Source: a virus (Duplodnaviria > Heunggongvirae > Uroviricota > Caudoviricetes). From it: a stretch of DNA of 64,000 nucleotides. The position numbers were made by a program, and so were the translations under genes. Where the stretch lies: positions 17,261 through 81,260 of the IMG/VR virus record IMGVR_UViG_2932604667_000002; one strand, 5' to 3'. Positions 1,783 to 62,063 of the stretch are shown in pieces; positions within the stretch are counted from its first letter, which is position 1; each line of letters starts with the position of its first letter. The notes under the pieces were generated by a model, which saw only the letters and a program-made list of their open reading frames with translations, had not been told where the DNA came from and ran no database searches.

Positions 1783-1835
1783 GGGTTCGCTCTCCCAACA
1801 CCTCCGTCATAGCGCCGGTATTTAGCGTAGACAGG
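1783..1835 (-). promoter_or_regulatory. promoter/leader-hairpin cassette, variant (loop TTCGCTCT; core GCCGGTATTTAGCG)
   Basis: GGGTTCGCTCTCCCAACACC ... GCCGGTATTTAGCG. Confidence 0.5.
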
Positions 1836-1986
1836 AGGGTAGCGCGGAGGGCCGGGGATGGTCCTGAGCGACACGTTCCGAGGCCACCGACGAGGAAGGC
1901 CCCGCGCATGGCGGGGCCTTCGGACGGTCCGTGCTACGGGACGTGATCCACTTTACCGCGGGCGGTTATGCCTGCATATAGGTGGA

Positions 1987-2107
1987 TCAGTCCTCGTCGT
2001 CGCCCAGGTCGGTGTGCTCCGGGAGCGGGGTGGTCTCGACGCTGACGACGGTCTGGTGGACGACGGTGGTCTGCTGACCGACGGGGCCGTAGTTGTTGAC
2101 CTGCACG
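1987..2107 (-). CDS. small acidic protein (40 aa, GTG start)
   Basis: GTG preceded by AAGGAGAAG SD. Confidence 0.35.
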
Positions 2108-2168
2108 TGCTTCTCCTTCGTGTATGGGATGGGTCGGCCCGGCCTGGCGCCGGGTCGTGGGGGAGTGG

Positions 2169-2456
2169 TCAGAGCCGCTTGAGCGGCATGTACTGGGGAG
2201 AGGTCTCCAGGAACTTCAGGCACAGCGCCGCCGTCCACGGCGTGGAGCTGGTGGCCTCGCGGTCCTCCTCGGTGACGCCGAGGACCGTGGCCCACCAGCG
2301 TCCGGCCGGAGGGCAATCCGCGTGCTGCCCGGTGGTGTCGCAGTCGGCGTAGCCGGTCTCCATGACATGGACGTCCACGCCGTGCATCCGCAAGACGTCG
2401 TTGGTGTGGACGTCGGCGGGCGGGACGTGGGCGTACGCCTCGCTGGTGCTCATCAT
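2169..2456 (-). CDS. hypothetical protein (95 aa)
   Basis: ATG 2456, AGGAGA SD directly after leader hairpin of cassette 2474. Confidence 0.55.
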   Translation of the reverse strand: MMSTSEAYAHVPPADVHTNDVLRMHGVDVHVMETGYADCDTTGQHADCPPAGRWWATVLGVTEEDREATSSTPWTAALCLKFLETSPQYMPLKRL

Positions 2457-2473
2457 GGGTCTCCTGTTGTCGC

Positions 2474-2525
2474 GGGGTCGCTCTCCCCAACACCGTCGAA
2501 AGTACCGGTATCTAGTCGGCAAATC
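2474..2525 (-). promoter_or_regulatory. promoter/leader-hairpin cassette (stem GGGG/CCCC)
   Basis: GGGGTCGCTCTCCCCAACACC-N8-GTACCGGTATCTAG. Confidence 0.6.
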
Positions 2526-2806
2526 AAGGAGTCTGCCCTCGCCGCTGCAGGGGCATCCTGTCGGCCTCCGCGCGGGCCGTTCCGACCCCACCGCACGCCT
2601 GACAGAAGTCGCGCTCGCCGTTGCAGGTCTGGCACGGCTCCTCGTCGAGGTCGACGCGGATGAGTTCGACGTCGTCGTCCACCTCGAAGTAGGACGCCTG
2701 CGTGCTCCGGTCGACCTGGGCGGCGCGGGCCTTCTGCGCGGCCTCGATCGGGCTGTCGGCGGTGACGTCGATCTCCCAGACGACGCGGTATCCCCTGCTC
2801 ACCTGG
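2524..2806 (-). CDS. zinc-ribbon protein (94 aa)
   Basis: GTG with AGGAGG SD; CQTCNG...CQACGG. Confidence 0.5.
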
Positions 2807-3881: not shown

Positions 3882-4475
3882 TCAGTCCTCGCCCGGGAAC
3901 TGAATCGTGATGACGGGCTCGAAGTTGTCGCCGGGGCCGATGACCATCTCAAGCGTGACCTGCTTGGCGGTGCGGGACCTGCCGTCGCGGGGGATGCGCG
4001 CCACGGTGAACCGGGACCGGTCGGTGTTCCCGGCGGTCAGGGCGGCTTTGCGGGCCATCCACAGGACGTCCCACAGACGGCCAGACTCGTCCTGGTAGGT
4101 GCGCTGGCAGGTGTCGTCGTCGTCGGTCCAGCGGACGGAGTCGCTCCAGACGGAGGCGGTCATGGCCATGGGGTGACGGAACCCGGCTTCGCGGGCGATG
4201 TTCTCGGGGACCTCCACCAGGGCGCCATCCTCGATCATCTGGGCGCGGGTGAAGACGTGGATGGGCTCGCCGTAGAGGGCGACAAGCTCGGCGGCGTGCT
4301 CCTCGGCGGTGAGGGTGTGCGTCTGGCCGCCGCCGATGTCGTTGCCGTCGGTGGTCCAGAACTCGCCGTCGTCCTCGGGGATGACGGTGCCGGGCGGCGC
4401 CCAGCGCATCATGTCTCCGGTGCCGGAGATGACGCCGTCGATCTGTTCGAGGATCTCGTTGGTGGACTTGGTCAC
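3882..4475 (-). CDS. hypothetical protein (197 aa)
   Basis: first gene after cassette 4492; GGAGG SD 6 nt after hairpin. Confidence 0.6.
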   Translation of the reverse strand: MTKSTNEILEQIDGVISGTGDMMRWAPPGTVIPEDDGEFWTTDGNDIGGGQTHTLTAEEHAAELVALYGEPIHVFTRAQMIEDGALVEVPENIAREAGFRHPMAMTASVWSDSVRWTDDDDTCQRTYQDESGRLWDVLWMARKAALTAGNTDRSRFTVARIPRDGRSRTAKQVTLEMVIGPGDNFEPVITIQFPGED

Positions 4476-4491
4476 GTGGGCCTCCTGTCTG

Positions 4492-4550
4492 GGTGTTGGG
4501 TCGCTCTCCCAACACCATTGAATGTACCGGTATTTAAGACCTGTGGCAAT
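4492..4550 (-). promoter_or_regulatory. promoter/leader-hairpin cassette (perfect 9-bp stem)
   Basis: GGTGTTGGG-TCGCTCT-CCCAACACC, GTACCGGTATTTAA, TGGCAA. Confidence 0.65.
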
Positions 4551-4617: not shown

Positions 4618-5763
4618 CTACTCGCCGCGTGCCTCGCGCTTCCGGCGGGCGATCAGCTCACGCGCCTGCCCGACCGTCAGCCCCTCCGCCAGCGCCTCCG
4701 CCCGGGAGATCCGGCCCTCCACCTTGTCGTACGGCACCGTGTCGGTGTGCATCTTCTCGTGGGCCAGCGCCTTGCACATTTCGACGGTCACGATCGGCCC
4801 GGCGTTGATCCAGTAGTGCGCCCACGGGATGGACACGCTCTTGGCGTTCGCCCGGACCACCTCGACTGCCTCCCCGAAGTAGATGACGAAGTCGCCCTTC
4901 TCGAAGTCGGCCTTGGACCACAGCTTGACGCCGCGCTGCTCGGCCTGGGCCAGGACCTCCCGCCAGTAGCCGAGTTCGTCGTCGATCTGGGCGAGGTCCG
5001 CCTCGCGGCTGGCCTTGTACCCCGGCGACGATGGCACCTTGCACCAGCGGTCGCCGTCGCCGTAGGTGTGGAGCACCCGCGCGCCCTCGGGCAACTCCTC
5101 ACCCGCGTGGACGGTGCGCTCCCAGCCGTCCTCCAGCACGCGGACGATGCGCCGCCGGTCGGCCTCCAGCTTCTCGATACGCCGGCGCGTGGTGCCCGGG
5201 TCCTCGCGGTGCCGCTGGTAGTTCTCGGCCGCCTGGGCACGGCCCGCCCAGTACTTGCCCTTCTTCGTCTCCTCGATGGCCTTGCCGTCCTGAGTGTGCG
5301 CCCAGTCGATCAGACGGCGGTGCCTGCGCTCGCTGTGGTGGCCGACGAGGATCGGCTGCCCCAGCGGAATGTGGCTCAGTCGCTCACGGGTGCGATCCCA
5401 GCGCGCGTTCCCGGCGGCGGTGTTGCGGTCGGCGCGCTCGCCGTACCGGTCGGCACGCTCCTCCGCCCGTTCGTTGCGGTCAGCCTCGGCCTCCGCGAAC
5501 GACCGGCCGAGGGTGACGTTGTCGATGTCGACCTCGACGGTGAATCCGGCGTCTCGGAGCGCCTGGGCGGCCCGGTCGATCGTCCACCGGTCAGCGGCCT
5601 TGTCGCGGGAGTTGCGGATGTAGAGGCCGACGTGGCGGGAGAATCGGAACCCGCGGGTGCGGACGATCTCCCACACTCCGTCCCCCTTCCGGCTGCCCTC
5701 GACGAGCGTGCCTTCCTCGCGGGTGTGGACGATCCGGATCGTCTGGCTGTTGGTGCTGGTCAC
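4618..5763 (-). CDS. hypothetical protein (381 aa), Arg/Glu-rich central region
   Basis: first gene after cassette 5780; long clean ORF. Confidence 0.6.
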   Translation of the reverse strand: MTSTNSQTIRIVHTREEGTLVEGSRKGDGVWEIVRTRGFRFSRHVGLYIRNSRDKAADRWTIDRAAQALRDAGFTVEVDIDNVTLGRSFAEAEADRNERAEERADRYGERADRNTAAGNARWDRTRERLSHIPLGQPILVGHHSERRHRRLIDWAHTQDGKAIEETKKGKYWAGRAQAAENYQRHREDPGTTRRRIEKLEADRRRIVRVLEDGWERTVHAGEELPEGARVLHTYGDGDRWCKVPSSPGYKASREADLAQIDDELGYWREVLAQAEQRGVKLWSKADFEKGDFVIYFGEAVEVVRANAKSVSIPWAHYWINAGPIVTVEMCKALAHEKMHTDTVPYDKVEGRISRAEALAEGLTVGQARELIARRKREARGE

Positions 5764-5779
5764 GTGGGTCTCCTGTCTG

Positions 5780-5840
5780 GGTGTTGGGTCGCTCTCCCAA
5801 CACCCCTCGAACGTTCCGGTATTTAAGAGCTATGGAAATG
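5780..5840 (-). promoter_or_regulatory. promoter/leader-hairpin cassette (perfect 9-bp stem)
   Basis: GGTGTTGGG-TCGCTCT-CCCAACACC, GTTCCGGTATTTAA. Confidence 0.65.
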
Positions 5841-5844: not shown

Positions 5845-6369
5845 CTAGCTGGCAGCCCAGCCGAAGAACAGCCAGCCCGTGTGCGTGGGGGCGCCGCCGG
5901 TCAGGGTGACGTACAGGGTGCCGGACAGGATCCGCTGCGGCTTCCTGACCCGGGCGTAGGGGGAGGAAGCGGGGGACAGCTCGTAGCTCCCGGCGGTGTA
6001 CTCCTTGACCTGCTCACCGTCCCGGAGCTGGCCGGCGACGGCGGCCTCGGCCGCCGCCTCGACGCTCTCGTAGCCGCCGGGGGTCTCCGGGATGGTGACG
6101 GTGACGGTGCGCTCGCTGGTGAGGACCGGGATCGCGCCGGCGCGGCCGCGGCGGGCGATCCGGGGGTCGTCCAGCAGGGTGTCAGCGAGCTGGTGGGCGT
6201 CGTCGAGGGGCATCGGGTCGCGCCGCATGACGATGTAGCCGTCGGTGGTGGAGATGGTGCCGTTGTAGGGGCTGGTGCCGTACTCGGCTTCGGCGTTGGC
6301 GACGGCTGCGCGGTAGGCGGTGGCGACGCGGGTTCCTTCGCCGATGGCGGAGAAGTTGTGTGCGCCCAT
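5845..6369 (-). CDS. hypothetical protein (174 aa)
   Basis: first gene after cassette 6388. Confidence 0.55.
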   Translation of the reverse strand: MGAHNFSAIGEGTRVATAYRAAVANAEAEYGTSPYNGTISTTDGYIVMRRDPMPLDDAHQLADTLLDDPRIARRGRAGAIPVLTSERTVTVTIPETPGGYESVEAAAEAAVAGQLRDGEQVKEYTAGSYELSPASSPYARVRKPQRILSGTLYVTLTGGAPTHTGWLFFGWAAS

Positions 6370-6387
6370 GCTGGTTCTCCTGTCTGG

Positions 6388-6445
6388 TGGGTCGCTCTCC
6401 CAACACCCCTAATAGTACCGGTATTTAACTCGCTTGGCGCTAGCT
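6388..6445 (-). promoter_or_regulatory. promoter/leader-hairpin cassette
   Basis: GGGTCGCTCTCCCAACACC, GTACCGGTATTTAA, TGGCGCTAGCTGG. Confidence 0.65.
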
Positions 6446-6922: not shown

Positions 6923-7143
6923 GGCCGCATCTCGTGCAGGTCCTCGGCCTGCTCCTCGGCGTACAGGTAGGCCGCCAGGGCGCGGTCCGCGTCCTCGTCG
7001 GAGCCGCTGGTGCTCTCCCAGGCCAGTCGCCGGCGGGCGCGGTCGGCGTCCTCTTCGGCTTCCCGGCGGATCGCGTCGTAGTCGTACCGGCAGGGGCACT
7101 CGCTGGTCTCGTCGCAGGCGGAGTGGTCGGCGGTGACGTCCAT
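6919..7143 (-). CDS. small acidic Cys-containing protein (74 aa)
   Basis: first gene after cassette 7162. Confidence 0.5.
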   Translation of the reverse strand: MDVTADHSACDETSECPCRYDYDAIRREAEEDADRARRRLAWESTSGSDEDADRALAAYLYAEEQAEDLHEMRP

Positions 7144-7161
7144 GGTGGTCTCCTCGGTGGT

Positions 7162-7236
7162 GGTCGGGTCGCTCTCCCAACACCCCTAATGGTACCGGTA
7201 TCAAACTGGCCTGGCGCTAGCTGCGCCAGGCCAGTT
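7162..7236 (-). promoter_or_regulatory. promoter/leader-hairpin cassette; -35 region embedded in 29-bp palindrome
   Basis: core GTACCGGTATCAAA; CTGGCCTGGCGC-TAGCT-GCGCCAGGCCAG. Confidence 0.6.
7206..7234 (-). terminator. hairpin terminator overlapping cassette -35
   Basis: 29-bp perfect palindrome then TTTGATA on coding strand. Confidence 0.45.
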
Positions 7237-8586: not shown

Positions 8587-8909
8587 CGGGCCGGACCTCT
8601 CTGTGCGGGGCGGCGGACCAGGTCGAGGGCGTCGGCCTCGGGGGTCCTGGTCCGCGCCTGCTGGGGCGGGGTGGCGGTGGCCGGTTCGCCGGTCTCGATG
8701 GTCTCGATGGTCTTCCAGGTGACTGCACCCAGCTTCAGCACCTCCATGCCGTCGGAGAACGACTCGATGGTCGCCCAGGCGGCATCGCTCAGTTCTCCGT
8801 TCCAGGATTCGGAGCGGCACGAGCTGAGTGCTTCGTCGCCGAACGCGGCGGCGAACCGGATCAGGGTTTCGGCCTCGGGCTCGGTGAGGCCGAAGGGTGG
8901 ATAGGTCAT
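8583..8909 (-). CDS. small protein, MTYPPFGLTE family (108 aa)
   Basis: first gene after cassette 8926; paralog of 7721..7933. Confidence 0.55.
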   Translation of the reverse strand: MTYPPFGLTEPEAETLIRFAAAFGDEALSSCRSESWNGELSDAAWATIESFSDGMEVLKLGAVTWKTIETIETGEPATATPPQQARTRTPEADALDLVRRPAQRGPAR

Positions 8910-8925
8910 GGGACCTCCTGTAGTA

Positions 8926-9000
8926 GGTCGGGTCGCTCTCCCAACGACACCGATGGTACCGGTATTGAGCTGGCCCTGGCGCTGGGTGCGCCAGGGCCAG
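8926..9000 (-). promoter_or_regulatory. promoter/leader-hairpin cassette; -35 region in 31-bp palindrome
   Basis: core GTACCGGTATTGAG; CTGGCCCTGGCGC-TGGGT-GCGCCAGGGCCAG. Confidence 0.6.
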
Positions 9001-11508: not shown

Positions 11509-11766
11509 TCAGCGGGTCGCGTACTTCGCGAGAACCTCGCGGCGGTACGTGCCGTACAGCGACTTCTCTTCGTCGGTCAGCGCGTCGAGTGCGGTGAACA
11601 GCTCCGTCTGAGCCCGCTTGGCGTTGTCGTGCATCTGCTGCTTCCGCCACAGCGGGACGCCGGCACCCTGGCAGGCGACCCCGGCCTTCTCCGACTTGGC
11701 GACGAACTCAAGGTCGAGCAGGTGCTCGAACGTCGTGATCTGGTCAGTGGTGGCCGTGGTCTGCAT
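11509..11766 (-). CDS. hypothetical protein (85 aa)
   Basis: first gene after cassette 11788; AAGGAGG SD. Confidence 0.6.
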   Translation of the reverse strand: MQTTATTDQITTFEHLLDLEFVAKSEKAGVACQGAGVPLWRKQQMHDNAKRAQTELFTALDALTDEEKSLYGTYRREVLAKYATR

Positions 11767-11787
11767 GGGTGCCTCCTTGGAGGTGGT

Positions 11788-11855
11788 GGTCGGGTCGCTC
11801 TCCCAACGCCTCTGATAGTACCGGTATTTAGCTGAGATGGCACCCCCTCCGATGA
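11788..11855 (-). promoter_or_regulatory. promoter/leader-hairpin cassette
   Basis: canonical hairpin; core GTACCGGTATTTAG. Confidence 0.6.
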
Positions 11856-12278: not shown

Positions 12279-12527
12279 TCACACTGCTTTCGGGGTTGCG
12301 CCGGGGGCGACGTCGTAGGTGGAGCCGTCGTCGTAGTGCTCGACCCAGCCGTACGCCCCGTTGGCGTCGGGCAGGTGGCGGACTCGCCGGGTCAGGACGC
12401 GGCCGCACGTGGTGCAGCGGATGTGTGTCCTGGCGAACTGCTCCCAGGTGTCGGTGGCCGGGCAGAAGACCTCAGCGACCTTGATGGGTCGGCAACGGTT
12501 CTGATAGCGGGTTCGTCGGGCGGTCAT
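12279..12527 (-). CDS. zinc-ribbon protein (82 aa)
   Basis: first gene after cassette 12544; GAGGAG SD. Confidence 0.55.
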   Translation of the reverse strand: MTARRTRYQNRCRPIKVAEVFCPATDTWEQFARTHIRCTTCGRVLTRRVRHLPDANGAYGWVEHYDDGSTYDVAPGATPKAV

Positions 12528-12543
12528 CGTGACTCCTCGGGCT

Positions 12544-12600
12544 GGTCGGGTCGCTCTCCCAACACCTCTCAACGTACCGGTATCTAAGTCCTGTGGCAAC
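12544..12600 (-). promoter_or_regulatory. promoter/leader-hairpin cassette
   Basis: core GTACCGGTATCTAA; TGGCAAC. Confidence 0.65.
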
Positions 12601-13097: not shown

Positions 13098-13409
13098 TCA
13101 GATGCTTTCCAGGCGGGCGTGGGTGATGGCGGTGGGGTAGTGCGGGGGCCGGGCGGGGTAGGTCCACACGTCGGCGTCCTGGGCCTCGGCGGTCCATCCC
13201 TGCTGCATGTTCTCGTGGATGAACCAGCCGGTGACGTACTCGACGAACTCGGCGGCGGCCTCGGGGGTGCGGAAGACAGCGCCGGAGGCGGGGGCGCCGT
13301 AGGTGCCCTGGGTGGCCTCCTCGACGGTGTCGAAGACGCGGACGCCGTGGCGCGCGCCGAGCAGGGCGCCGTTGTGGAGCGGGACGTACAGGGTGGTCTT
13401 GGTGGCCAT
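13098..13409 (-). CDS. hypothetical protein (103 aa)
   Basis: first gene after cassette 13427; GAGGAGA SD. Confidence 0.55.
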   Translation of the reverse strand: MATKTTLYVPLHNGALLGARHGVRVFDTVEEATQGTYGAPASGAVFRTPEAAAEFVEYVTGWFIHENMQQGWTAEAQDADVWTYPARPPHYPTAITHARLESI

Positions 13410-13426
13410 CGTGTTTCTCCTCGGGT

Positions 13427-13484
13427 GGTCGGGTCGCTCTCCCAACACCTTCGAAGGTACCGGTATTTAAGTGGTGTGGCAATG
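13427..13484 (-). promoter_or_regulatory. promoter/leader-hairpin cassette
   Basis: core GTACCGGTATTTAA; TGGCAAT. Confidence 0.65.
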
Positions 13485-16093: not shown

Positions 16094-16453
16094 TCAGCGG
16101 CGACCGAACAGGCGGCGGTGGATCTCGCGGCTCTCGGCCTCGCTGAACCCCTTCAGGTGGAGGGTCTTCTCCTCGCGGTCGCCGGAGTACGGGTTGGTGT
16201 AGGTCTCGGCGCTGTACCAGCCGTTGGGCTGCCAGTCCGGGTGGCTGGAGTACTCGTTGTCGCAGCCCGCGCGCTCGATCTGGTCGGCGGCGGCTTCGGC
16301 GACTTCCTTGACGGTGGCCGCGGGGCCGAGTTCGTCCAGCTCGATCTTGGTCTCCCACACGCTCTTGGTGGCGGGATTCCAGTCACCGTCCTCGGTGACC
16401 CGGCCGGACGTCGTGAAGATCTGCAGGGTGCGGCAGGTCGTGGACGTGGTCAC
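16094..16453 (-). CDS. hypothetical protein (119 aa, GTG)
   Basis: first gene after cassette 16473; AAGGAGG SD. Confidence 0.55.
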   Translation of the reverse strand: MTTSTTCRTLQIFTTSGRVTEDGDWNPATKSVWETKIELDELGPAATVKEVAEAAADQIERAGCDNEYSSHPDWQPNGWYSAETYTNPYSGDREEKTLHLKGFSEAESREIHRRLFGRR

Positions 16454-16472
16454 GATGAACCTCCTTCGGGGT

Positions 16473-16528
16473 GTCGGGTCGCTCTCCCAACACCTTCGAT
16501 AGTACGGGTATTTAACTACCGTGGCAAT
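16473..16528 (-). promoter_or_regulatory. promoter/leader-hairpin cassette
   Basis: core GTACGGGTATTTAA; TGGCAAT. Confidence 0.65.
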
Positions 16529-20325: not shown

Positions 20326-20637
20326 TCAGGCCGCCTTGTCGGTCAGCGGCTCGAAGCCGGAGTCATCGGCGGGCAGGTCGACGACGAAGGAGGCGCCCGG
20401 GTACGGCTGGCGCTCCACGGTGCAGTCGTAGGTGAAGAGCCACACCTGCAGGGCCTGCCAGCCGGTGAAGCGGAGCCACTCGGCGGGGGAGCCGGGCGCG
20501 TAGATGATGATCTCGCCGTCGGTGCGGCAGTAGCCGATGGTGTGGCCGCTGAAGTGGCGCGAGATGAGTTCCGCGGACCAGTCGGTGCCGGTCTCCTGTG
20601 ATGTTTCGTCGAGCCGGTAGTCGCCCCGGTAAAGCAT
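20326..20637 (-). CDS. hypothetical protein (103 aa)
   Basis: first gene after cassette 20652. Confidence 0.55.
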   Translation of the reverse strand: MLYRGDYRLDETSQETGTDWSAELISRHFSGHTIGYCRTDGEIIIYAPGSPAEWLRFTGWQALQVWLFTYDCTVERQPYPGASFVVDLPADDSGFEPLTDKAA

Positions 20638-20651
20638 GAGTCCTCCTGCGG

Positions 20652-20715
20652 TGGTCGGGTCGCTCTCCCAACACCTCTGATAGTACCGGTATTTAACCGT
20701 GTTGGCGCTAGCTGT
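20652..20715 (-). promoter_or_regulatory. promoter/leader-hairpin cassette
   Basis: core GTACCGGTATTTAA; TGGCGCTAGCTG. Confidence 0.65.
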
Positions 20716-23014: not shown

Positions 23015-23362
23015 TCAGCGGGGAAGGTGGCAGGCGAGGACGAGACCTTCCTCGGTGTAGACGGCGCTGAAGAACCGGCGGTCACCGCGGTGGGACTCGA
23101 CGATCTCGTGCAGCTTGTTCGCGAGGGCCTTGACGGGCTCGGAGGCGACCTTGCGCGGCCCCCAGGTCCCGTCGCCGGTCTCGAAATAGGTCCACTCGTC
23201 CGGGGCACCCTTGATGTAGACGTTGACGGAGGATCCCTGCGAGTAGGTCTCCATGCGGACGGAGAACGTGATGCCGGCGGGGTGCTCGGGGAGGGTTCCG
23301 GCCTTGGCGGCGGCGCGGATGTCGGCGCGGACGCGGGCGGTGACGTTCTTCAGGGGTTCCAT
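23015..23362 (-). CDS. hypothetical protein (115 aa)
   Basis: first gene after cassette 23386; AAGGAGG SD. Confidence 0.55.
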   Translation of the reverse strand: MEPLKNVTARVRADIRAAAKAGTLPEHPAGITFSVRMETYSQGSSVNVYIKGAPDEWTYFETGDGTWGPRKVASEPVKALANKLHEIVESHRGDRRFFSAVYTEEGLVLACHLPR

Positions 23363-23385
23363 GGGGTGCCTCCTTGGTGCGGGGT

Positions 23386-23452
23386 GTCGGGTCGCTCTCC
23401 CAACACCTCTGAATGTACCGGTATTTAGGAGCTGTGGCAACGGCGGTGGGGC
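23386..23452 (-). promoter_or_regulatory. promoter/leader-hairpin cassette
   Basis: core GTACCGGTATTTAG; TGGCAAC. Confidence 0.65.
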
Positions 23453-23456: not shown

Positions 23457-23771
23457 TTACCAGGGCGTGGCGGGAAGGGTTCGGATGGTGTCGCGCGTGG
23501 TGGGGCGGGCGATCAGGTACGGGGTGACGTGGCTTCCGCGGTTGAACTTCAGGGGGAGGGCCTCCTGGCAGTGGCTGCAGCGGCGGGCCACCAGGACGCA
23601 GCCGACGAACACGGCGCGGGTGTGGTGGTCGGTCGGGTGGTGGAAGTGGGGGGCCAGGGCGATGTTCAGGTCGAAGCACGCCTCGCAGTCGCGGAAGTAG
23701 CTGTCGCCGTCGGCGGTGGCGTCGTTGGTGTGGCAGGTCGCGCACTTGGGGGCGGTGGCGGTTCCGTTCAT
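23457..23771 (-). CDS. zinc-finger protein (104 aa)
   Basis: first gene after cassette 23791; CATCH...CEAC...CSHC. Confidence 0.55.
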   Translation of the reverse strand: MNGTATAPKCATCHTNDATADGDSYFRDCEACFDLNIALAPHFHHPTDHHTRAVFVGCVLVARRCSHCQEALPLKFNRGSHVTPYLIARPTTRDTIRTLPATPW

Positions 23772-23790
23772 GGTGGTCCTCCTGGTGGGG

Positions 23791-23848
23791 CCGGGTCGCT
23801 CTCCCGGACACACCTCGAACGTACCCGTATCTAACTGGTCTGGCAACG
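23791..23848 (-). promoter_or_regulatory. promoter/leader-hairpin cassette (stem CCGGG/CCCGG)
   Basis: CCGGG-TCGCTCT-CCCGG; core GTACCCGTATCTAA; TGGCAAC. Confidence 0.6.
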
Positions 23849-26255: not shown

Positions 26256-26272
26256 GCAGCCTCCAGTCCGGG

Positions 26273-38832: not shown

Positions 38833-38854
38833 GGGATCTCCTTGGGTGGGGGTC

Positions 38855-38871: not shown

Positions 38872-38947
38872 GAGGGGGTGGCCGATCGGCCTGGGGAGGT
38901 TCGCCACGTATGGCGGTGTCCGGGACGGGGGTCCCGGGCGGGGTGGG

Positions 38948-39478: not shown

Positions 39479-39496
39479 GGGGTGCCTCCTCGGGTG

Positions 39497-39552
39497 GTCG
39501 GGTCGCTCTCCCAACACCCATGAATGTACCGGTATTTAATCAGAGTGGCAAC
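39497..39552 (-). promoter_or_regulatory. promoter/leader-hairpin cassette
   Basis: core GTACCGGTATTTAA; TGGCAAC. Confidence 0.65.
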
Positions 39553-39911: not shown

Positions 39912-39933
39912 GCAAGCCTCCTGGTGAAGTGGG

Positions 39934-39992
39934 GTGTCGGGTCGCTCTCCCAACATCGGCTGACGGTACCGGTATTTAACCGACGGGGCAAC
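39934..39992 (-). promoter_or_regulatory. promoter/leader-hairpin cassette
   Basis: loop-proximal CCCAACATC; core GTACCGGTATTTAA; GGGCAAC. Confidence 0.6.
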
Positions 39993-40059: not shown

Positions 40060-40347
40060 TCAGGCGGCGACCTTCGACTCCTGCGCGGCGCGGTACGCCT
40101 TCGCGGCCTGGAAGGTGGCGCGCTTGGCCGCGGCCTCGGCCCGCAGGAGGATGACGATCAGGGCGGGAACCAGCACGGTGACCGCGGCCAGGACGCCGAC
40201 GGCGGCGCCGACCGCCGGGGAGTCGCCGAACCCGTACAGGGCCGGGATGAATCGGCCGGCGGCCCAGACGATGCCGATGGCGACGATGGCGGCGGCGGTG
40301 TGGGCGACGACGACGGTCCGCATCTGGCTGGGCTTCCGAGTGGTCAT
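40060..40347 (-). CDS. small 2-TM membrane protein (95 aa), tandem paralog B
   Basis: first gene after cassette 40368. Confidence 0.55.
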   Translation of the reverse strand: MTTRKPSQMRTVVVAHTAAAIVAIGIVWAAGRFIPALYGFGDSPAVGAAVGVLAAVTVLVPALIVILLRAEAAAKRATFQAAKAYRAAQESKVAA

Positions 40348-40367
40348 GCGAGCCTCCTGGTGAAGTG

Positions 40368-40428
40368 GGTGTTGGGTCGCTCTCCCAACACCTCTGACTG
40401 TACCGGTATTTAACTCGCCTGGCAACGC
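40368..40428 (-). promoter_or_regulatory. promoter/leader-hairpin cassette (perfect 9-bp stem)
   Basis: GGTGTTGGG-TCGCTCT-CCCAACACC; core GTACCGGTATTTAA; TGGCAAC. Confidence 0.65.
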
Positions 40429-40720: not shown

Positions 40721-40899
40721 GACTTAAATACCGGTCGCGACACGCCGACCCCGGAGCGGGCACCCGAGACGTGATCCTGGTAGGAAAGTGCCGCAATACC
40801 AAGAACATCAGGAGTCACGTCAACAGGAAGCTGATCCCTCCTCTCCGCGACGCGACCCCCTGACCATCCCCTCCCCCTGTCACACCGCGAGGAGACGAA

Positions 40900-43734: not shown

Positions 43735-43967
43735 TGAGCTCGGCAGCGCAGCGCCGAAAGGAGAAGGCCCAGGCCAAGAAGGCCTGGCACCAGAACCGGA
43801 TCGACGAGGCGCCCGACCGGCGAACGCGACTCATGCGGGCGACCGACCAGCTCGCCTCAGCGCTGAAGCGGCTTCCGGACCAGGAAGCCGATCGGCTCGC
43901 CGACGAGGTCATCGCCTACCTGGCCCGAAAGAGCGATTCGGCCAACAGAAGGAGACACGCTCGATGA
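43735..43967 (+). CDS. small basic protein (77 aa, GTG)
   Basis: AGGAAG SD; ATGA overlap with next gene. Confidence 0.45.
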
Positions 43968-52576: not shown

Positions 52577-53143
52577 TCACACCGCGTACGGCAGCCCGTC
52601 GAGCGGGGCGAGGTAACAGGGGTTGACCGGGTCCAGCCGTACCCGTCGGCCCGAGGCCAGGACCAGGGGGACCTGGGTCGGGTCTGTGGCCGCCGTCAGC
52701 TTCCCGGGGACGCCCTGGGGGACGAGGAGCCCGCGCGTGACGGCCTGGCCGCCCTGGGGGTCGTTGTAGCCGTGATGCTCAATCCAGCCATGACAGCCGC
52801 GGGTTCCATGGCCGCAGGAGATGACCAGGTTGGCCAGAGAGTTGATCGCCGGGTTCGTAGTGCCGCCCATCCGCCGGCCGGAGCGGTGGTGCAGCGACAC
52901 CAGGTCGCGGGGGAGTACCGCGAGCAGACCGCCGGGGGTGAGGCAGTCGGGGGAGCGGACCTCGCACAGGCCGCCGGAACGGGTGAGCAGGAGCAGCATC
53001 AGGAGGTCCCACTCTTCCCGCGACAGCTCGGCGCGGGGGAACGGGGCGAGCACGCGCCAGGGCTGGCCACAGGCGCAGATGTTGTCATCGCCCGGGTGGG
53101 ACAGGTAGGCCAGGCCGCAGGCCGGGCACAGGCTTCGAGCCAT
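52577..53143 (-). CDS. HNH endonuclease (188 aa)
   Basis: LHHRSGRRMGG..N..N..C..CH; N-terminal CxxC...CxC; GGAGAC SD; hairpin variant 53168 upstream. Confidence 0.6.
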   Translation of the reverse strand: MARSLCPACGLAYLSHPGDDNICACGQPWRVLAPFPRAELSREEWDLLMLLLLTRSGGLCEVRSPDCLTPGGLLAVLPRDLVSLHHRSGRRMGGTTNPAINSLANLVISCGHGTRGCHGWIEHHGYNDPQGGQAVTRGLLVPQGVPGKLTAATDPTQVPLVLASGRRVRLDPVNPCYLAPLDGLPYAV

Positions 53144-53167
53144 CGTCGTCTCCAAAAAAGAGGTAGG

Positions 53168-53216
53168 CCCCAGGTCGCTCTCCCGGGGCCTACCGGTCTG
53201 TGGGGTCTTAGGTCGC
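53168..53216 (-). promoter_or_regulatory. leader hairpin variant (stem CCCCAGG/CCCGGGG) plus TAGGTCGCG box
   Basis: CCCCAGG-TCGCTCT-CCCGGGG then CTACCGGTCT and TTAGGTCGCG; upstream of HNH gene. Confidence 0.45.
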
Positions 53217-54680: not shown

Positions 54681-54839
54681 TCAGCGTGAGGAGTCCGCGA
54701 TGGCGCCGCGTCGGGCGTCCCCGCGGCTGCGGCGCCGGCGGGGTCGGGAGTCGTGCCGTCCGGCGGCGTTGCTGCGGCGCAGCTCGGCGAGCCGGGTACC
54801 GGTCGTCTCACGGTGTGCCTGGGTGGTGCGGCGGGCCAT
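54681..54839 (-). CDS. small arginine-rich basic protein (52 aa; ARM-like)
   Basis: first gene after cassette 54858; AGGAGG SD; MARRTTQAHRETTGTRLAELRR...RPRRRRSRGDARRG. Confidence 0.45.
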   Translation of the reverse strand: MARRTTQAHRETTGTRLAELRRSNAAGRHDSRPRRRRSRGDARRGAIADSSR

Positions 54840-54857
54840 GGTGGTCCTCCTGCGATG

Positions 54858-54912
54858 GTCGGGTCGCTCTCCCAACGAACCTGATAGTACCGGTATTTAG
54901 GGCCGGTGGCGC
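54858..54912 (-). promoter_or_regulatory. promoter/leader-hairpin cassette
   Basis: core GTACCGGTATTTAG; upstream of ARM-like gene. Confidence 0.6.
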
Positions 54913-58232: not shown

Positions 58233-59572
58233 GCGGCGGCCTCCATGGCGGTCTGCTTGGCGACGCGGACCGGCCGGACTTCGGTCCACACGTCGACTCG
58301 GAAGGGAAGCTCGATCTTGTCGAGCCAGGTCTGGAACTCCCCGCGGAGCGCGGGTGGCGAGGTCTCCCATTGCTGTCGCGCCTTGGCGACGGCGAGGAAG
58401 TAGGCCTTGTGGTCGGGCATCCTGCGGCGCCGCTCGGTGATGACCCACTTGCCGTAGGTGCCGTCGGGCAGTCCGGCGACGAGCGGGGCGGTGGCTTCGT
58501 ACTCGCGGACGGCTTCCTTGCGGTTTTCCTTCCACTCCCAGGTCAACGACGCCGCCCACTCGATCTTGGCGGCGTCGGGGTCTGGGCCGAGGATGGTGTA
58601 GCCCTGGGGGGAGCGGCCGGCGGCCTTGGCGGCGGGGATGTTCCAGCAGTGCGAGCGGAACGGGCACCGGTCGCAGATCGGGTCCCTGTCGGGGCCGCGG
58701 CCGTCGCGGGGCAGGTCGACGCCGAGTTCGATCGCGGCGGACAGCGCCTGGAGCTCGCCGAGGGCGGAGCGGGCGAAGTCCTCGTCGTAGGGCTCGGTGA
58801 AGACCTCGTTGTCGCCGTCCACGCGCGAGATGTAGTCGATCTCGATCCAGTCGACCGGTCGGCCTGTCGCGCGCATCCCGTAGCCGTAGACGGCCGCCTG
58901 CTTCCAGTGCTCGATCCGAGGTCCGTAGATGCCGATGTGCTCCCAGGCGTAGGCGCCGGCGGATTTGCGGTCGCCGACGATGGCGAGGATCTGGTCGTAG
59001 CGGTCGATGTGGCCGATGGCGTCCAGGCCGGGGATCGCAACCGGCAGCTCGTGCTGGACCCACTTGTAGAAGTGGGCGTCAGCGAGACGGCCCAGGTGGT
59101 GGAAGGCGGTGCCGAGGTCGGCGGCGGAGGTGTCGACCGGGTCCCGGACCAGGTCAAGCGGCGGATTGAGCCGGTATTGAACAGCGCGACGGCAGCGGCC
59201 GGAGTCGGAGGGGCGGACGCCCGTGCCGCTGGTCGCCTGCTCGCGCCGGTTGATCTCGTCCAAGTAGCGCTTGACGTCGTCACGGAACCGAGGCCGCGCG
59301 GCGAGCACCTGCTCGGCGAGCTTGTAGGCCGGGTGGGGCGCGTAGCGCTTGCAGCCGGTGTCCTTGTTGCCGCCGCCGCCCTTGGCGCCGGCGTGTTCGG
59401 TCAGGGGAGCCCCGCACATGCAGGGCGTGCCGCCGGGGGTCGGCTGGTACCCGGATTCGATGACGGTTCGGGCCGCGTTGATCGGAAGGCTCATGGGGCC
59501 TCCCACAGACTTTCGGGCATGCGTGTCTCCTGCTCGGCTGCCACCGGATCGCTCGGCCGGTGGTGTCGACAT
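58229..59572 (-). CDS. Cas4/RecB-family (PD-D/ExK) exonuclease (447 aa)
   Basis: C-terminal CDRCPFRSHCW Cys cluster typical of Cas4/RecB nucleases; recT nearby. Confidence 0.55.
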   Translation of the reverse strand: MSTPPAERSGGSRAGDTHARKSVGGPMSLPINAARTVIESGYQPTPGGTPCMCGAPLTEHAGAKGGGGNKDTGCKRYAPHPAYKLAEQVLAARPRFRDDVKRYLDEINRREQATSGTGVRPSDSGRCRRAVQYRLNPPLDLVRDPVDTSAADLGTAFHHLGRLADAHFYKWVQHELPVAIPGLDAIGHIDRYDQILAIVGDRKSAGAYAWEHIGIYGPRIEHWKQAAVYGYGMRATGRPVDWIEIDYISRVDGDNEVFTEPYDEDFARSALGELQALSAAIELGVDLPRDGRGPDRDPICDRCPFRSHCWNIPAAKAAGRSPQGYTILGPDPDAAKIEWAASLTWEWKENRKEAVREYEATAPLVAGLPDGTYGKWVITERRRRMPDHKAYFLAVAKARQQWETSPPALRGEFQTWLDKIELPFRVDVWTEVRPVRVAKQTAMEAAA

Positions 59573-60022
59573 GGGGTGGTGCTCATGGCCCGGACGCTAG
59601 ACCGGACCTGCGGTTACTGTCTGCGCTCACTCGTGTGCGCGCAGGTAGTTACCACGTTGAATCATGGTATCGCCATGACCCGGGCGGGTGGCAAGGCGTA
59701 CCCACGCAGGGAACGGACCTCTGCCTCAAGTGGACAGGGATCGAACATCTCGTAGCCGCGGGCGTAGTCAACCAGTTACCGTTCTTTGCGGAACTCGACA
59801 ACCGTCCAGGGGACTGGGGGGAGGGGGCGGCCAGCATGCTGAGCGTGAACGTCCCACTCCTGCTCACGACGCCCTTTTGGGAGATAGACCTCCGGTTGGC
59901 TGCCCATCGCGCACTCACCTCTGTCTGGGACTTCGCGGCGGACGCCTGGGACACGCTGCGAGGGCGATGCAGAGACCCTCTACGGGGGCACTTATCCCTG
60001 ACCAGCAAATGGCGGCACACCA

Positions 60023-60510
60023 TGACCGGTGACCAACGGGGCACAACCACCCCGCCAGAACAGGATCTCTCGCTGGCACAACGAACTACCCTGGCCCGGC
60101 GACTCGCGGCTCGGGACATCAGCGCTCACATGGCCTACGTGGCCGCACAGGACGCCGATGGTCTCGCCGAGTCGCTGGATCCATGCAAAACGCTGGACGT
60201 CCTCGCCCAGCGGTACCGGACCCTGGCAGTGCTCCACGCGCGGATCGTGAACGGCGCGAGCTGGGCACAGGTCGCCGGACGCCTCGGTATCGAGGCATCG
60301 ACCGCGCGGGCGCTGTATGAGGAACCCGAGAAGCGGTGGCGGCAAGGGGACCCGCGGCCGTGGGCGGTGCAGGCCGCTCGGCTCGCCCTGGCTGCCGCAC
60401 GCGCGGACCTGCCGCCGGCGGACCTGGACATCAACCCCGGCAACGCCGCAGACCTCGCGGCCGAACTCGAAAGGTTCGTGGCCGTCTACCCGTTCGAGGC
60501 GCCCGAGTAG
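60023..60510 (+). CDS. putative HTH regulator (sigma-70 region-4-like), 162 aa
   Basis: LAQRYRTLAVLHARIVNGASWAQVAGRLGIEASTARALYEE; atypical codon usage; longer ORF 59560..60510 possible; sits between exo and recT. Confidence 0.4.
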
Positions 60511-60553
60511 GCGCGCGGCCGACCCCGCCAGGTGGGCCAGCCGCGCGCACGGT

Positions 60554-62003
60554 TCAGGACACGTGTGTGGCGTCCTCAGCGGGGCGACCACACCCCGGAG
60601 CGGCACACTCGGCGCCGTCCTCGCCCTCCACGAACAGGTGCAGCGGTGACCCCTCCGCCTCCGCCTCCGCCTCCGCCGCGACGCGGCCCAGCAGCACCGG
60701 CACCGGAGCGATCAGCATCCGACCGGCCTCCCGGTACGCCTGCGCCTCCTCCGCTCTGCCGGACTTGGCGAGCAGGTCGGCGACTGCGTCCCGCATCGGC
60801 CCGACGATCGCGACCATCTCGGCGGCAGTCGCGTCGTCGAGGTTCTTTCTGAGCTGCCGGACGACGATGTTGCCGTACGGCTTGCCGATCGCCTCAGAGA
60901 TCATGGCGATCTCGTCGCGCATCCACTGGGCCAGCTCATCGGCGGTCGGCGTCTGCTCGCTGGCACCATCCGGCGTCGCGTCCTGCCCGGCCTCCTGGAC
61001 GTCGTCGGGGGCGACCTCCACCGTGACCTCCGCCGTGGTCTCCGTCGTGGTGTCCGGTGCGGGACTCGTGCGGGTCCGCATGCTGGGGACCTGGACGGCC
61101 GTCACCGCCGACCGGTACTTGTCCTGGCGGGCACGGACCCCATCGGCGATCTGCTCGCGGGCGGCCGTCGCGTCGGCCTGCATCATCTCCTCGTTGGTGT
61201 AGATCCCCGACAGCCGCTCCGGGCACGCCTTGCGCAGGACGAGCGCTTCGGCGCACTTCCCGGGCATCAGGGCCTGCCCCTTCTCCCACATCTCCGACAG
61301 CTCCATGGCGATGCTGCCGTCAGGGTTGTAGACCTTCTCCCGGTACCACTTGTCGTTCTTGGTCTGCTTCCACTCGCCCTTGGCGGGGAAGTACGGCGCG
61401 TACATCTTCCAGTTCGCGATTGCAGTGGTGACGGCGTCGTTACCGTAGGGGTCGTAGTGCTCGAGGACGGCCTTGGCCGCGCCCGGGTGGTCGCGGATGT
61501 CGGGCCACTGCTCCCACCAGATGCGCCGCATGACCAGCTCGCCGGTGCGGGGGTCCTCCACGGCCCGCCAGGAGGAGTCGTCGTCGTCGTCCCCGGTCCA
61601 GTAGATCGTTGCGCCGCCCTTGATGCGGCCGGTGTCGTTGGCGAGGATCCGGAAGCCGTCGATGCCGGTCTGAATCGTGAAACTCGCGTTGTCTCCGTCG
61701 CCGCGCTTGATCAGGTAGATCTGCCGCAGGAACGGGTTGAGACCCCTGGACGTGCATGCCTCAATGAACACCTCCATGTGAGGCCACGCCTGGCGGTCCA
61801 TCGGGTCGAAGTTGACGATGCCCTTGAACGCCTCCAGTTGGCGGGCGGTCATGTCGCCTATCCCCTGGTCGCGGCGAAACACCAAGACGCCACCGGAGGC
61901 GGGGGTGAAGGCGACCGCGCTCTCGGTGCGTTCGATGCCTTCGTCGTCGGGGATGGGGGCGTTCGGCTCGCGGGTCTGGACGGGCGATGCGTGATCGGCT
62001 GTC
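60554..62003 (-). CDS. recT: RecT-family single-strand annealing protein
   Basis: EVFIEACTSRGLNPFLRQIYLI...FTIQTGIDGFRILA matches the RecT core; AAAAAGGAGA SD directly after hairpin 62043; track start 62011 is a GTG. Confidence 0.7.
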
Positions 62004-62042
62004 ATGCACACTCTCCTTTTTAGGCCCGGTCGCTCTCCGGGC

Positions 62043-62063
62043 CTATCGTTGCTGGCAGGCGGC
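62043..62063 (-). promoter_or_regulatory. leader hairpin variant (stem GGCCCGG/CCGGGCC) upstream of recT
   Basis: GGCCCGG-TCGCTCT-CCGGGCC 12 nt before recT SD. Confidence 0.5.

Follow-up and report, generated by a model that had tools for sequence, protein, structure and literature searches.

Why should a mobile genetic element place nearly the same short piece of noncoding DNA in front of one gene after another? The question is raised by a stretch of 64,000 nucleotides from a virus of the class Caudoviricetes (IMG/VR virus record IMGVR_UViG_2932604667_000002, positions 17,261 to 81,260), hereafter called the window, which belongs to the 151,757-bp contig JBIAXI010000024.1 from Microtetraspora fusca GCA_042896545.1. 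A preliminary description had noticed in it a promoter joined to a leader hairpin and reiterated across the sequence, and the present analysis confirms that this cassette is real. The explanation that we consider moderately likely as a whole is that the cassette would be a common regulatory module of early-type, that is non-structural, genes, in which early promoters for the host sigma factor are combined with an operator in the promoter spacer and with a loop-specific RNA element in the leader.

The reiterated cassette and its promoter geometry

The core of the cassette is a box, TTAAATACCGGTAC, which with at most two mismatches occurs 24 times in the window, against 0.01 expected from shuffled sequence, with 22 copies on the minus strand (2502 to 54900) and two on the plus strand (40724 and 62096). 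The hairpin core GGGAGAGCGACCC has 22-24 exact matches on the minus strand and is present in every full copy. Box and hairpin together make 24 units on that strand, 22 canonical and two degenerate, the canonical ones spanning 2454-40425 plus 54837-54912, and one unit is a discrete module of 75-85 bp. Read on the coding strand, it consists of a -35 element (TTGCCA in 12 copies, GCGCCA in six, near variants in the rest), a spacer of 17 bp (18 in one copy) that ends in the 11 bp YTARATACCGG, a -10 element TACNNT, about 5 nt, the hairpin, typically GGTGTTGGG-AGAGCGA-CCCRACACC, a linker, a Shine-Dalgarno (SD) sequence and the start codon. The hairpin starts 5-7 nt after the -10 element and lies 0-3 nt from the predicted 5' end of a leader whose predicted length is 36-45 nt; from hairpin to SD there are 7-17 nt of C/A-rich sequence, and the SD (GGAGG or shorter) is followed after 4-9 nt by the start codon. 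Where independent gene calls cover the stretch, all nine start codons next to cassettes match called gene starts.

The sigma-70-type geometry that had been proposed for the -35 and -10 elements turned out to be exact. The pattern ([TCG][TG]GCCA or GCGCCA)-N16-18-TACNNT has 19 matches over both strands, against 0.66 in randomised sequence, and these are 18 of the cassettes and the promoter of recT; two cassette promoters are also flagged by a generic promoter scanner. A profile anchored at the -10 element shows moderate conservation from -35 to -30 and no constraint from -29 to -24; all 19 copies agree throughout -22 to -10 and again at T-7, with -9 and -8 between them varying freely. Recognition by region 2 of a primary sigma factor predicts a fixed T-12, A-11 and T-7 with free middle positions, and the invariance of C-10 goes beyond what the sigma-70 consensus demands. 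Judged by this profile, the cassette promoters would fit primary-sigma (sigma-70/HrdB-type) recognition plus an extra constrained block, and for the invariant block from -22 to -13 RNA polymerase recognition gives no account. The first layer of the proposed module would be a promoter for RNA polymerase with the host primary sigma factor (HrdB/sigma-70-type), and our confidence that these are early promoters of that kind is high. The cassette was also considered as a T7 promoter, an idea that was dropped because the -35/17/-10 geometry fits sigma-70.

Gene content was read from ~83 kb, and searches of Pfam or PHROGs covered about 75 proteins of the window. Cassettes head the gene array from 40.4 kb down to 1.8 kb, plus one operon in the replication region (54.9 kb), and variant cassettes head recT, a divergent gene for a 339-amino-acid (aa) ORFan, and two genes left of the window near those for SSB and DnaB; left of the window there are two further cassette-like copies, up to 6.8 kb away. 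No cassette occurs among the tail genes (9.25 kb) to the right of the window. The statement that the cassette heads almost every operon thus stands for the non-structural genes but not for the tail genes. Such a distribution is what would be expected of an early, non-structural promoter class, and since the same cassette stands before non-structural genes, these probably form one co-controlled set. The likeness to temperate Streptomyces phages that had been drawn is apt as regards their early promoters and operators, given the tail, lysin and TerS-like genes and the restriction to non-structural genes, but the host is Microtetraspora fusca and the element is a phage-plasmid.

According to pairwise BLAST, homology between copies is limited to 60-95 bp, from the -35 element through the start codon, and is longer only in four neighbouring pairs, which are local gene duplications. 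Insulation by terminators ahead of the cassettes is not general, strong terminator-like hairpins being found upstream of the -35 element in about one quarter of the copies, which is not above the control rate.

All 24 units lie on the minus strand. At the head of the array stands the canonical copy at 40345..40425 (TTGCCA-17-TACAGT, hairpin 40368-40392), before a 95-aa membrane protein, followed by that at 39909..39991 (TTGCCC-17-TACCGT, hairpin 39935-39955), before a 93-aa paralogue. Further canonical copies are found at 39476..39551 (TTGCCA-17-TACATT, hairpin 39497-39515), 36525..36606 (TTGCCA-17-TACGTT, hairpin 36552-36570), 36074..36154 (TTGCCA-17-TACATT, hairpin 36097-36121), 33426..33506 (TTGCCA-17-TACCTT, hairpin 33448-33474) and 26682..26758 (GCGCCA-17-TACCAT, hairpin 26704-26722). 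The unit at 26253..26328 has a weak -35 element, GCCCGC, with box CTAGATACCGG, -10 TACAAT and hairpin 26272-26294, and that at 23769..23846 has a variant box, TTAGATACGGG, and carries the same loop on a variant stem, (T)CCGGG/CCCGG (hairpin 23791-23807). Canonical copies follow at 23360..23440 (TTGCCA-17-TACATT, hairpin 23383-23407), 20635..20708 (GCGCCA-17-TACTAT, hairpin 20654-20672), 16451..16527 (TTGCCA-17-TACTAT, box TTAAATACCCG, hairpin 16470-16494), 13407..13482 (TTGCCA-17-TACCTT, hairpin 13428-13446), 12525..12599 (TTGCCA-17-TACGTT, hairpin 12545-12563) and 11764..11843 (GTGCCA-17-TACTAT, hairpin 11789-11807). The copy with the 18-bp spacer lies at 8907..8982 (GCGCCA-18-TACCAT, box CTCAATACCGG, hairpin 8927-8945), another canonical copy at 7141..7217 (GCGCCA-17-TACCAT, box TTTGATACCGG, hairpin 7163-7181), and one with a shortened 3' stem arm at 6367..6440 (GCGCCA-17-TACTAT, hairpin 6388-6402). 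Towards the left end come the cassette of the DUF3560 gene at 5761..5838 (TTTCCA-17-AACGTT, hairpin 5779-5805), the canonical cassette of the DUF6573 gene at 4473..4549 (TTGCCA-17-TACATT, hairpin 4492-4516), the cassette at 2454..2527 (TTGATT-17-TACTTT, box CTAGATACCGG, hairpin 2473-2489) and the degenerate last copy of the array at 1713..1837, which has box CTAAATACCGG, CGCTAT in place of the -10 element and a broken 3' arm of the hairpin. The replication region holds the isolated canonical copy at 54837..54912 (GCGCCA-17-TACTAT, box CTAAATACCGG, hairpin 54858-54876), before a 52-aa arginine-rich open reading frame (ORF). The other degenerate unit lies at 53141..53215, with box CCACAGACCGG-TAGGCC and a hairpin at 53162-53194 (13-bp stem, AGAGCGA loop, T-run), just before the HNH gene start at 53143. 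The degenerate boxes that had been reported near 1363 and 32517 were found again on the minus strand at 1364..1377 (CTAGATACCAGTAC-TAT, no hairpin) and 32522..32535 (CTAAATACGGGCAC-TTT, no loop hairpin).

Tandem paralogues lie behind neighbouring cassettes at 39630-40347 and 34811-36527 on the minus strand, namely the two small membrane proteins of 95 and 93 aa and three proteins whose likeness to each other is limited to the N-terminus M(D/N)QATI(E/R)A. Their homology continues past the cassette over the first codons only, and this abrupt end may be a footprint of cassette-mediated recombination.

The spacer box as a putative operator

The 11-bp box YTARATACCGG stands at -23 to -13 in all cassettes and forms, together with the TAC of the -10 element, the palindrome TACCGGTA. 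It is invariant despite its place in the spacer, which is normally unconstrained. Outside the 24 units it recurs in plus orientation at the two strand switches, 40724-40737 and 62096-62109, as had been described. The copy at 40724..40737, TTAAATACCGGTCG, is a box without -10 element or hairpin in the divergent region upstream of parA.

The other plus-strand copy belongs to a divergent locus. Here recT has the sole match of the promoter pattern in the window that is not part of a cassette (promoter and leader 62009..62118, minus strand): the -35 element CTGCCA at 62118-62113, the spacer AAAGTACGGGTATTTAG at 62096-62112, the -10 element TACCCT at 62095-62090, an SD and the ATG at 62011. The spacer of this promoter carries the box in inverted orientation, and a variant hairpin, TAGGCCCGG-AGAGCGA-CCGGGCCTA (62021-62045, minus strand), and recT follow about 50 nt further on. 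On the plus strand the same DNA belongs to the cassette of the 339-aa ORFan gene (62096..62234), with CTAAATACCCG at 62096-62106, a -10 element TACTTT at 62107-62112, a weak -35 element, an SD and the ATG at 62232; its leader, too, has a variant hairpin, GCGTGAGGA-CGAGCGA-TCCTCACGC (62163-62187, plus strand). One physical box (62096-62106) therefore serves two back-to-back promoters, and since the -35 and start regions of these promoters interpenetrate, the two should be mutually exclusive. The locus sits between tail/lysis genes and early recombination/replication genes, which is where temperate siphophages place their immunity genes.

It had been suggested that the palindromic box could be a protein-binding site. 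This suggestion gains support from the invariance within the spacer, from the box-only copy upstream of parA and, as its strongest though indirect argument, from the sharing of an inverted box at a locus that resembles an immunity region; the box would be a protein site, perhaps an operator. As the second layer of the module, it would bind a repressor encoded by the element, which would shut RNA polymerase out of all these promoters together, so that the set would be silent while the element is resident as prophage or plasmid and would fire jointly when it enters a naive cell or is induced. On this coordinated silencing and burst our confidence is evenly divided.

The positional candidate for such a protein is the product of the 339-aa ORFan gene itself (62232..63251, plus strand), which consists of two ~150-aa repeats of an uncharacterised all-helical domain with the motif PDxxGxRVFxSPxL...RxRAExILG...DLExG. 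Its remote relatives are single-domain proteins of ~160 aa, two of them with an N-terminal helix-turn-helix (HTH), and its structural model (predicted local distance difference test score 88.9) has no significant fold match. As a recognisable repressor it was rejected, being an ORFan without a fold match; by position alone, it is a candidate immunity or regulatory protein. A second possible trans factor, to be regarded as a lead only, is the TerS-like HTH protein (16786-17352, minus strand; phrog_4102, E 7e-18), whose gene is embedded in the early array at a distance from the tail genes; in the sequence covered, no large terminase gene is close to it.

The leader hairpin

The hairpin is more than a part of the promoter. 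The heptamer AGAGCGA has 29 copies on the minus strand, 27 of which are loops closed by a stem of at least 4 bp, and four copies on the plus strand; hairpins with an xGAGCGA loop and a stem of at least 5 bp number 27, against 0.73 expected and a maximum of three in 200 randomisations. The loop, (A/C)GAGCGA, is kept on at least seven different stems of 5-13 bp. Besides the standard stem, these are (T)CCGGG/CCCGG at 23802, TCGCCGG/CCGGCGA at 38866, TAGGCCCGG/CCGGGCCTA at 62036 before recT and a 13-bp stem with a T-run at 53181, and on the plus strand CCGAA/TTCGG at 43930 and GCGTGAGGA/TCCTCACGC at 62172, each ahead of a plus-strand gene.

That the structure is formed in RNA, as the preliminary description had supposed for a structured leader before the SD, is borne out by covariation. 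In an alignment of 28 copies double-sided changes occur at nine of nine stem pairs, a score matched by none of 500 shuffles, and the pairing is lost when the partner columns are slid; an unguided RNAalifold prediction gives the same helix. At one position the commonest pair is U.G (17 copies), which is a C.A mismatch on the opposite strand, and the folding energy of the sense RNA is -14.2 kcal/mol, compared with -10.8 kcal/mol for the antisense. The hairpin is sense-oriented before the SD on whichever strand carries the gene.

Four hairpin copies without a promoter lie between cistrons, past the stop codon and 7-20 nt ahead of the next SD, and therefore the hairpin tracks translation starts in mRNA. 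Hairpins of this kind are found on the minus strand at 38853..38873 (TCGCCGG-AGAGCGA-CCGGCGA, 13 nt before the SD of gene 38254-38832) and at 35207..35229 (standard stem, before gene 34811-35185), and a plus-strand hairpin at 43925..43941 (CCGAA-AGAGCGA-TTCGG) lies ~20 nt before the gene start at 43964. The view of the hairpin as a component of the promoter cassette hence holds for the 24 units but is too narrow, as the loop also occurs on other stems and without a promoter (62021-62045, 53162-53194, 38853-38873 and 35207-35229 on the minus strand; 43925-43941 and 62163-62187 on the plus strand). The hairpin is an RNA-level module, independent of the promoter and tied to translation starts, and selection would act on its loop sequence and not on its stem sequence.

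As the third layer of the proposed module, a stem-loop with a stem of 5-13 bp at the 5' end of the mRNA would cap and protect that end and would keep the ribosome-binding site clear of upstream pairing, and an element-specific factor would read the loop, tuning the stability, translation or read-through of each early message. We judge it highly probable that the hairpin functions within the mRNA, at its 5' end or ahead of an SD; that it protects and insulates the message and is also read at its loop by an element-specific factor is put forward more tentatively, with somewhat less than even confidence. In a stronger form, the (A/C)GAGCGA hairpin would be a regulon-wide RNA operator on ~29 leaders and intercistronic sites, placed above the DNA operator of the same cassette, and the 52-aa peptide (then autoregulated) or a C2H2-like protein would switch the translation, stability or termination resistance of the whole early proteome. 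We regard this form as doubtful. To our knowledge, no such two-layer global switch within a single cassette has been described for phages or plasmids.

The C2H2-like protein (329 aa; 36856-37845, minus strand), likewise to be regarded as a lead only, has three tandem finger motifs (HQCGQC...H, CPHC...H...H, CHTC...H...H) and a C-terminal coiled coil; these suggest a nucleic-acid binder, which is unusual in a bacterial mobile element.

Some other identities of the hairpin were tried. Rfam covariance models give no match at gathering thresholds, and relaxing to E<=1 yields only three, all of them chance matches on the opposite strand to hairpins that are GC-rich but unrelated; a preQ1-type or other Rfam element, lacking Rfam support, was therefore rejected. 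The reading of GTTGGGAGAGCG as a tRNA D-arm was dropped, since the stem-variant copies retain the loop only. A U-tract is absent after the hairpin in 23 of 24 copies, and the hairpin lies downstream of the -10 element. Directly before the SD of the HNH gene, the hairpin at 53162-53203 (minus strand; 13-bp stem, about -27 to -29 kcal/mol, then TCTTTTTT) has the form of a textbook intrinsic terminator with the AGAGCGA loop.

Several points weigh against the combined explanation. The palindrome is just 8 bp long and the box as a whole is asymmetric. The scanned proteins include no classical repressor, sigma factor or RNA-binding domain; no repressor is recognisable among the ~75, the only HTH being that of the TerS-like protein, and the positional candidate, the 339-aa ORFan, has a confidently modelled helical domain and no DNA-binding fold match. 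With a promoter every ~1.6 kb, the hairpin may need no trans factor, and a purely cis role as 5' stabiliser is possible. Finally, this type of cassette is known from one genome only, and its invariance could also stem from recent duplication or gene conversion. The stem-variant copies are the main argument for selection over homogenisation, the two being only partly separable.

The point about a cis role can be extended into an alternative without any trans factor, in which a strong unregulated promoter is joined to a passive 5' stabiliser and the box, an AT-rich spacer in DNA of 69% G+C, only tunes promoter strength or melting, while the hairpin does no more than block RNases that depend on the 5' end. 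Stable 5'-terminal stem-loops protect bacterial mRNAs, as in the ompA and ermC leaders; a hairpin 0-3 nt from the predicted 5' end would suit this established route, no regulator was found among the scanned proteins, and related cassettes are likewise AT-rich around the -10 element. What such an arrangement fails to explain is an invariant 7-nt loop whose stems are replaced wholesale, the G+C-rich CCGG that is as invariant as the AT-rich part of the box, the box-only copy upstream of parA and the inverted box at the divergent promoters, and we consider it unlikely.

Our estimate is no higher for the possibility that the hairpin is a site like nut/boxB, whose nascent loop is bound by the arginine-rich 52-aa peptide to make RNA polymerase resistant to termination, or else is a regulon-wide translational operator. 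An invariant loop over covarying stems, present at the start of each early transcript and recurring between cistrons, would agree with it, as would the terminator-like copy with its 13-bp stem and T-run. The peptide itself (54681..54839, minus strand) has 15 arginines (29%), MARRTTQAHRETTGTRLAELRRSNAAGRHDSRPRRRRSRGDARRGAIADSSR, and its own canonical cassette and SD, and it is predicted by a second gene caller and in an independent assembly too. In the related arrays described below the loop hairpin occurs once in 200 kb, which is chance level, so any loop reader should be specific to this element; a general host factor is an unlikely reader. Against this stand the absence of a Pfam match at E<=0.05 for the 52-aa ORF, N-type antiterminators included, with only a marginal match to an unannotated PHROG, and the density of promoters, which would hardly need antitermination; what ties the peptide to the loop is wholly conjectural. 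We keep the 52-aa ORF as a lead to a candidate loop-binding factor of the arginine-rich-motif type.

The replicon, its relatives and known systems

The replicon that carries the cassettes is, as far as its genes tell, a ~152-kb temperate phage-plasmid composite of a Streptosporangiaceae host. The window codes for ParA, an HTH_36 Rep-like protein, a DnaC/IstB-like loader, RecT, a PD-(D/E)XK exonuclease and an HNH nuclease, and further for the DUF3560, DUF6573 and TerS-like HTH proteins and dozens of small ORFans; a family match in Pfam or PHROGs is missing for most of the array proteins scanned. Directly right of the window are genes for a tape-measure protein, a Dit protein and minor tail proteins akin to those of temperate Streptomyces siphophages, and left of it those for an endolysin, SSB and DnaB helicase. 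A tail module, a lysin and a TerS-like gene alongside ParA, replication and recombination genes therefore speak for a phage-plasmid composite. A TraB-type conjugative plasmid was the first reading and was withdrawn once the tail, Dit, tape-measure, lysin and TerS-like genes turned up, FtsK-like genes having no power to establish conjugation; two FtsK/SpoIIIE-like ATPases are encoded, at 46237-48357 (plus strand, 706 aa) and 53417-54304 (minus strand, 295 aa). Megablast of the window against phages and plasmids returned short gene fragments and no close deposited relative. Position 1 of the window maps to contig position 134299 of 151,757, and ParA (window position 40900) is on the same contig; the window therefore crosses the contig ends (about window position 17459), which suggests a circular replicon opened within gene 17417-17755.

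Wholly inside the cassette regulon is a DNA-hypermodification island (18544-30421, minus strand). It encodes a Mom-like protein (18544-19632), a PAPS-reductase-like protein (19410-20324), DpdA (20708-21535), a C5-methyltransferase (21572-22678), FolE (within 26747-27985), a QueE-like radical SAM protein (27400-28224), QueC (28655-29368) and a second protein like tRNA-guanine transglycosylase (29387-30421), all on the minus strand; DpdA is here accompanied by a preQ0 pathway. Between the array head and parA, ~260 bp of noncoding DNA of lower G+C content (40440-40700, plus strand) contain several copies of the motifs CCTGTAGG and TTCCTGTCG(G), a cluster that may be a centromere (parS) or iterons. 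The motif CCTGTAC is also the upstream half of the 'type B' cassette of related elements.

These related elements were recognised by homologues of the DUF3560 protein (58-73% identity), each set in a comparable array of co-directional genes; the arrays are those of Planobispora, Planomonospora, Planotetraspora, Microtetraspora malaysiensis, a contig from a metagenome and a complete Streptosporangium plasmid of 358 kb. Among their array genes are those for DUF4192, DUF6349, DpdA, PAPS reductase, ParB-like, MoxR/vWA, NADAR, WGR and SSB proteins, and those shared with the present array stand in a different order. Three of the arrays (loci L156, L158 and L159) share the 'type B' cassette, CCTGTAC...CTATGATGAAGATATAAGAAA, which is strongly AT-rich in DNA of 70% G+C; a fourth (L157) has a related cassette, TTGATATCA-N-TATATGAT-N-GATATA, and two (L155 and L160, the latter on the 358-kb plasmid) have a G+C-rich repeat, CGCGGCCGCCCRAGACGGCTCAGCCG, instead. 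Each array has its own cassette, and thus the principle of one element-specific cassette per array is common to the group while the sequence is not. Such exchange of cassettes between arrays is as would be expected of co-evolving pairs of regulator and site. Relatives of ParA (~60% identity) have neither array nor cassette adjoining parA. Wider searches added nothing: the 15-mer TTGGGAGAGCGACCC gave, in a genome-contig collection of 596 Gb, for which the pattern is too short, single chance matches in unrelated taxa and none with the box; the composite pattern of box plus hairpin and the 21-mer hairpin had no match in viral or metagenome collections; and none of the motifs was found in the published literature.

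The relatives also bear on a further alternative, in which the box is a specificity determinant and the promoters serve an element-encoded sigma factor or RNA polymerase, with -22 to -7 as one extended element of T7 or phage-sigma type. Thirteen contiguous invariant positions exceed the need of host sigma-70 promoters, the 358-kb Streptosporangium plasmid has a sigma-70-family gene within the equivalent array, sigma genes of the extracytoplasmic-function type lie near parA in two relatives, and each relative has its own cassette sequence. Yet no gene for a sigma factor or RNA polymerase was found by Pfam or PHROGs in the ~83 kb, and tblastn with the sigma factor of the relative's plasmid returned noise only and no homologue here. 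A primary-sigma signature is given by the fixed T-12, A-11 and T-7 next to a free -9 and -8, by the spacing of 17 bp and by the TTGACA-like -35 element, and early genes need transcription before any protein of the element is present. We thus judge this alternative quite improbable and retain promoters read by the host primary sigma factor.

Less probable still is a primarily recombinational role, in which the cassettes would be portable patches of homology, perhaps for the RecT/exonuclease pair, that allow ORFan modules to be swapped and that are kept uniform by gene conversion. It would accord with homology sharply bounded to 60-95 bp between unrelated genes, with an array full of ORFans and local paralogues, with the RecT and PD-(D/E)XK exonuclease encoded by the element, and with the altered order of the array genes in relatives; for the promoter early stem-loop (PeSL) elements discussed below, recombination and mini-circles have been shown (PMC2839356). 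Recombination has no need, though, of a correctly spaced promoter, an SD and a start codon, and stem-variant copies that keep the loop argue for functional selection, not homogenisation; a recombinational role is most likely a by-product of the cassette and not an alternative to its regulatory function. A mobile or recombination site at the DNA level (integron attC-like site, REP/RAYT, miniature inverted-repeat transposable element or single-strand promoter of Frpo type), which short inverted repeats between co-oriented small genes superficially recall through their likeness to a cassette array, has a negligible probability, since no integrase or HUH/RAYT gene is found in the scanned proteins, the U.G stem pairs are C.A mismatches on the other strand, conservation of the loop and not the stem is the reverse of REP and attC, the -35 and -10 elements lie outside the hairpin unlike those of Frpo, and the position is fixed relative to the SD.

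How the cassette compares with known systems can be put as follows: by analogy, its closest precedents would be PeSLs in architecture, and P1 C1 operators, stoperators, the Reg576/EGeRS regulons and the pKM101 CUP repeats in regulatory logic, yet it is a member of none of them, combining their features and adding a loop-specific leader hairpin. In the PeSLs of the T4-type phages RB49 and phi1, a sigma-70 early promoter with a stem-loop is reiterated before ORFans (PMC2839356), and the likeness includes short composite cassettes in tens of copies, ORFan-rich variable regions, absence from structural modules and homology confined to the cassette. Their stem-loops, however, are polyG/polyC terminators that stand upstream of the promoter, within it or directly behind it and lack loop specificity (PMC2839356), whereas the present hairpin forms the 5' end of the leader, is followed by a U-tract in one copy only, has an invariant loop and covarying stems and occurs in promoterless copies; it does not show the character of a terminator or attenuator by which a PeSL is recognised. 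PeSLs also have no invariant spacer box, there is no sequence homology, and the host here is an actinomycete of high G+C content.

P1 is a plasmid prophage with ParA-type partition, in which one repressor, C1, silences dispersed operators. Its operators, and the stoperators of Cluster A mycobacteriophages (PMC9283540, PMC6550527), resemble the box in being asymmetric sites of 13-17 bp, present in many copies (>14 to 30) over the non-structural genome in a fixed orientation. Stoperators differ in lying mostly within or between genes, where they block elongation (PMC9283540, PMC6550527), while the present site is fixed inside the promoter, and neither system couples a conserved leader hairpin to its site; no repressor homologue was found among the proteins scanned here. 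Establishment regulons of conjugative plasmids, with the Reg576 operators of p576 and EGeRS1 of pLS20, both Bacillus plasmids, and the CUP repeats of pKM101, rely on a repressor at strong sigmaA promoters that permits a transient burst on entry (PMC6294495, PMC8708921). Like the present array, they comprise operons of small, variable genes of anti-defence type behind the same upstream regulatory sequence, which differs among related plasmids; unlike it, they have 4-7 copies and not at least 24, and their operators are pairs of heptamers flanking the -35 element or else structured stretches of 400-600 bp. This element further differs from such plasmids in having genes for phage tails and lysis.

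Cluster K mycobacteriophages have a start-associated sequence (SAS) in 11-19 asymmetric copies of one orientation, linked to start codons in the non-structural half, function unknown, and its extended form (ESAS) has an added inverted repeat just upstream, the arms of which do not covary and for which the authors favour DNA binding (PMC3203893). The SAS is a 13-bp motif, GGGATAGGAGCCC, that overlaps the SD at 3-7 bp from the start codon, whereas the repeat of the present element ends 7-17 nt short of the SD, shows covariation at the RNA level and forms one unit with a promoter, so that sequence and spacing are both different. With lambda N/boxB the cassette shares a short leader hairpin in which the loop sequence is decisive, and an arginine-rich protein of the element is a conceivable reader. 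Lambda, on the other hand, has two nut sites, compared with ~29 hairpins here, and the boxB loop is a GNRA-like pentaloop, compared with a loop of 7 nt; homology to N is absent, and a boxA partner is not known here, no search aimed at one having been made. Familiar, then, is the idea of a reiterated early promoter and operator, and unfamiliar are a regulon-wide hairpin whose loop is invariant but whose stems can be replaced, and the wholesale exchange of cassette types between related arrays.

If the proposed explanation is true, a single short DNA site together with a single short RNA loop would govern over 60 genes, among them a full 7-deazaguanine DNA-modification pathway and the genes for the Mom-like protein, methyltransferase, recombination and replication. 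Membership in the cassette would then define the regulon and mark genes of unknown function as co-expressed early functions, and the dozens of ORFans in it would likely act in host takeover or anti-defence. The ideas of the establishment regulon and of PeSLs would be extended to actinomycete phage-plasmids, and for high-G+C actinomycetes, where such parts are scarce, the cassette would offer a compact, apparently strong unit of promoter, 5'-untranslated region and ribosome-binding site, with a possible orthogonal pair of repressor and RNA-binding protein. That the relatives keep their arrays while swapping the cassettes would point to co-evolution of regulator and site as a form of immunity specificity, and the hairpin with its conserved loop and variable stem, the least expected feature of the element, would be the likeliest route to a new RNA-protein pair.

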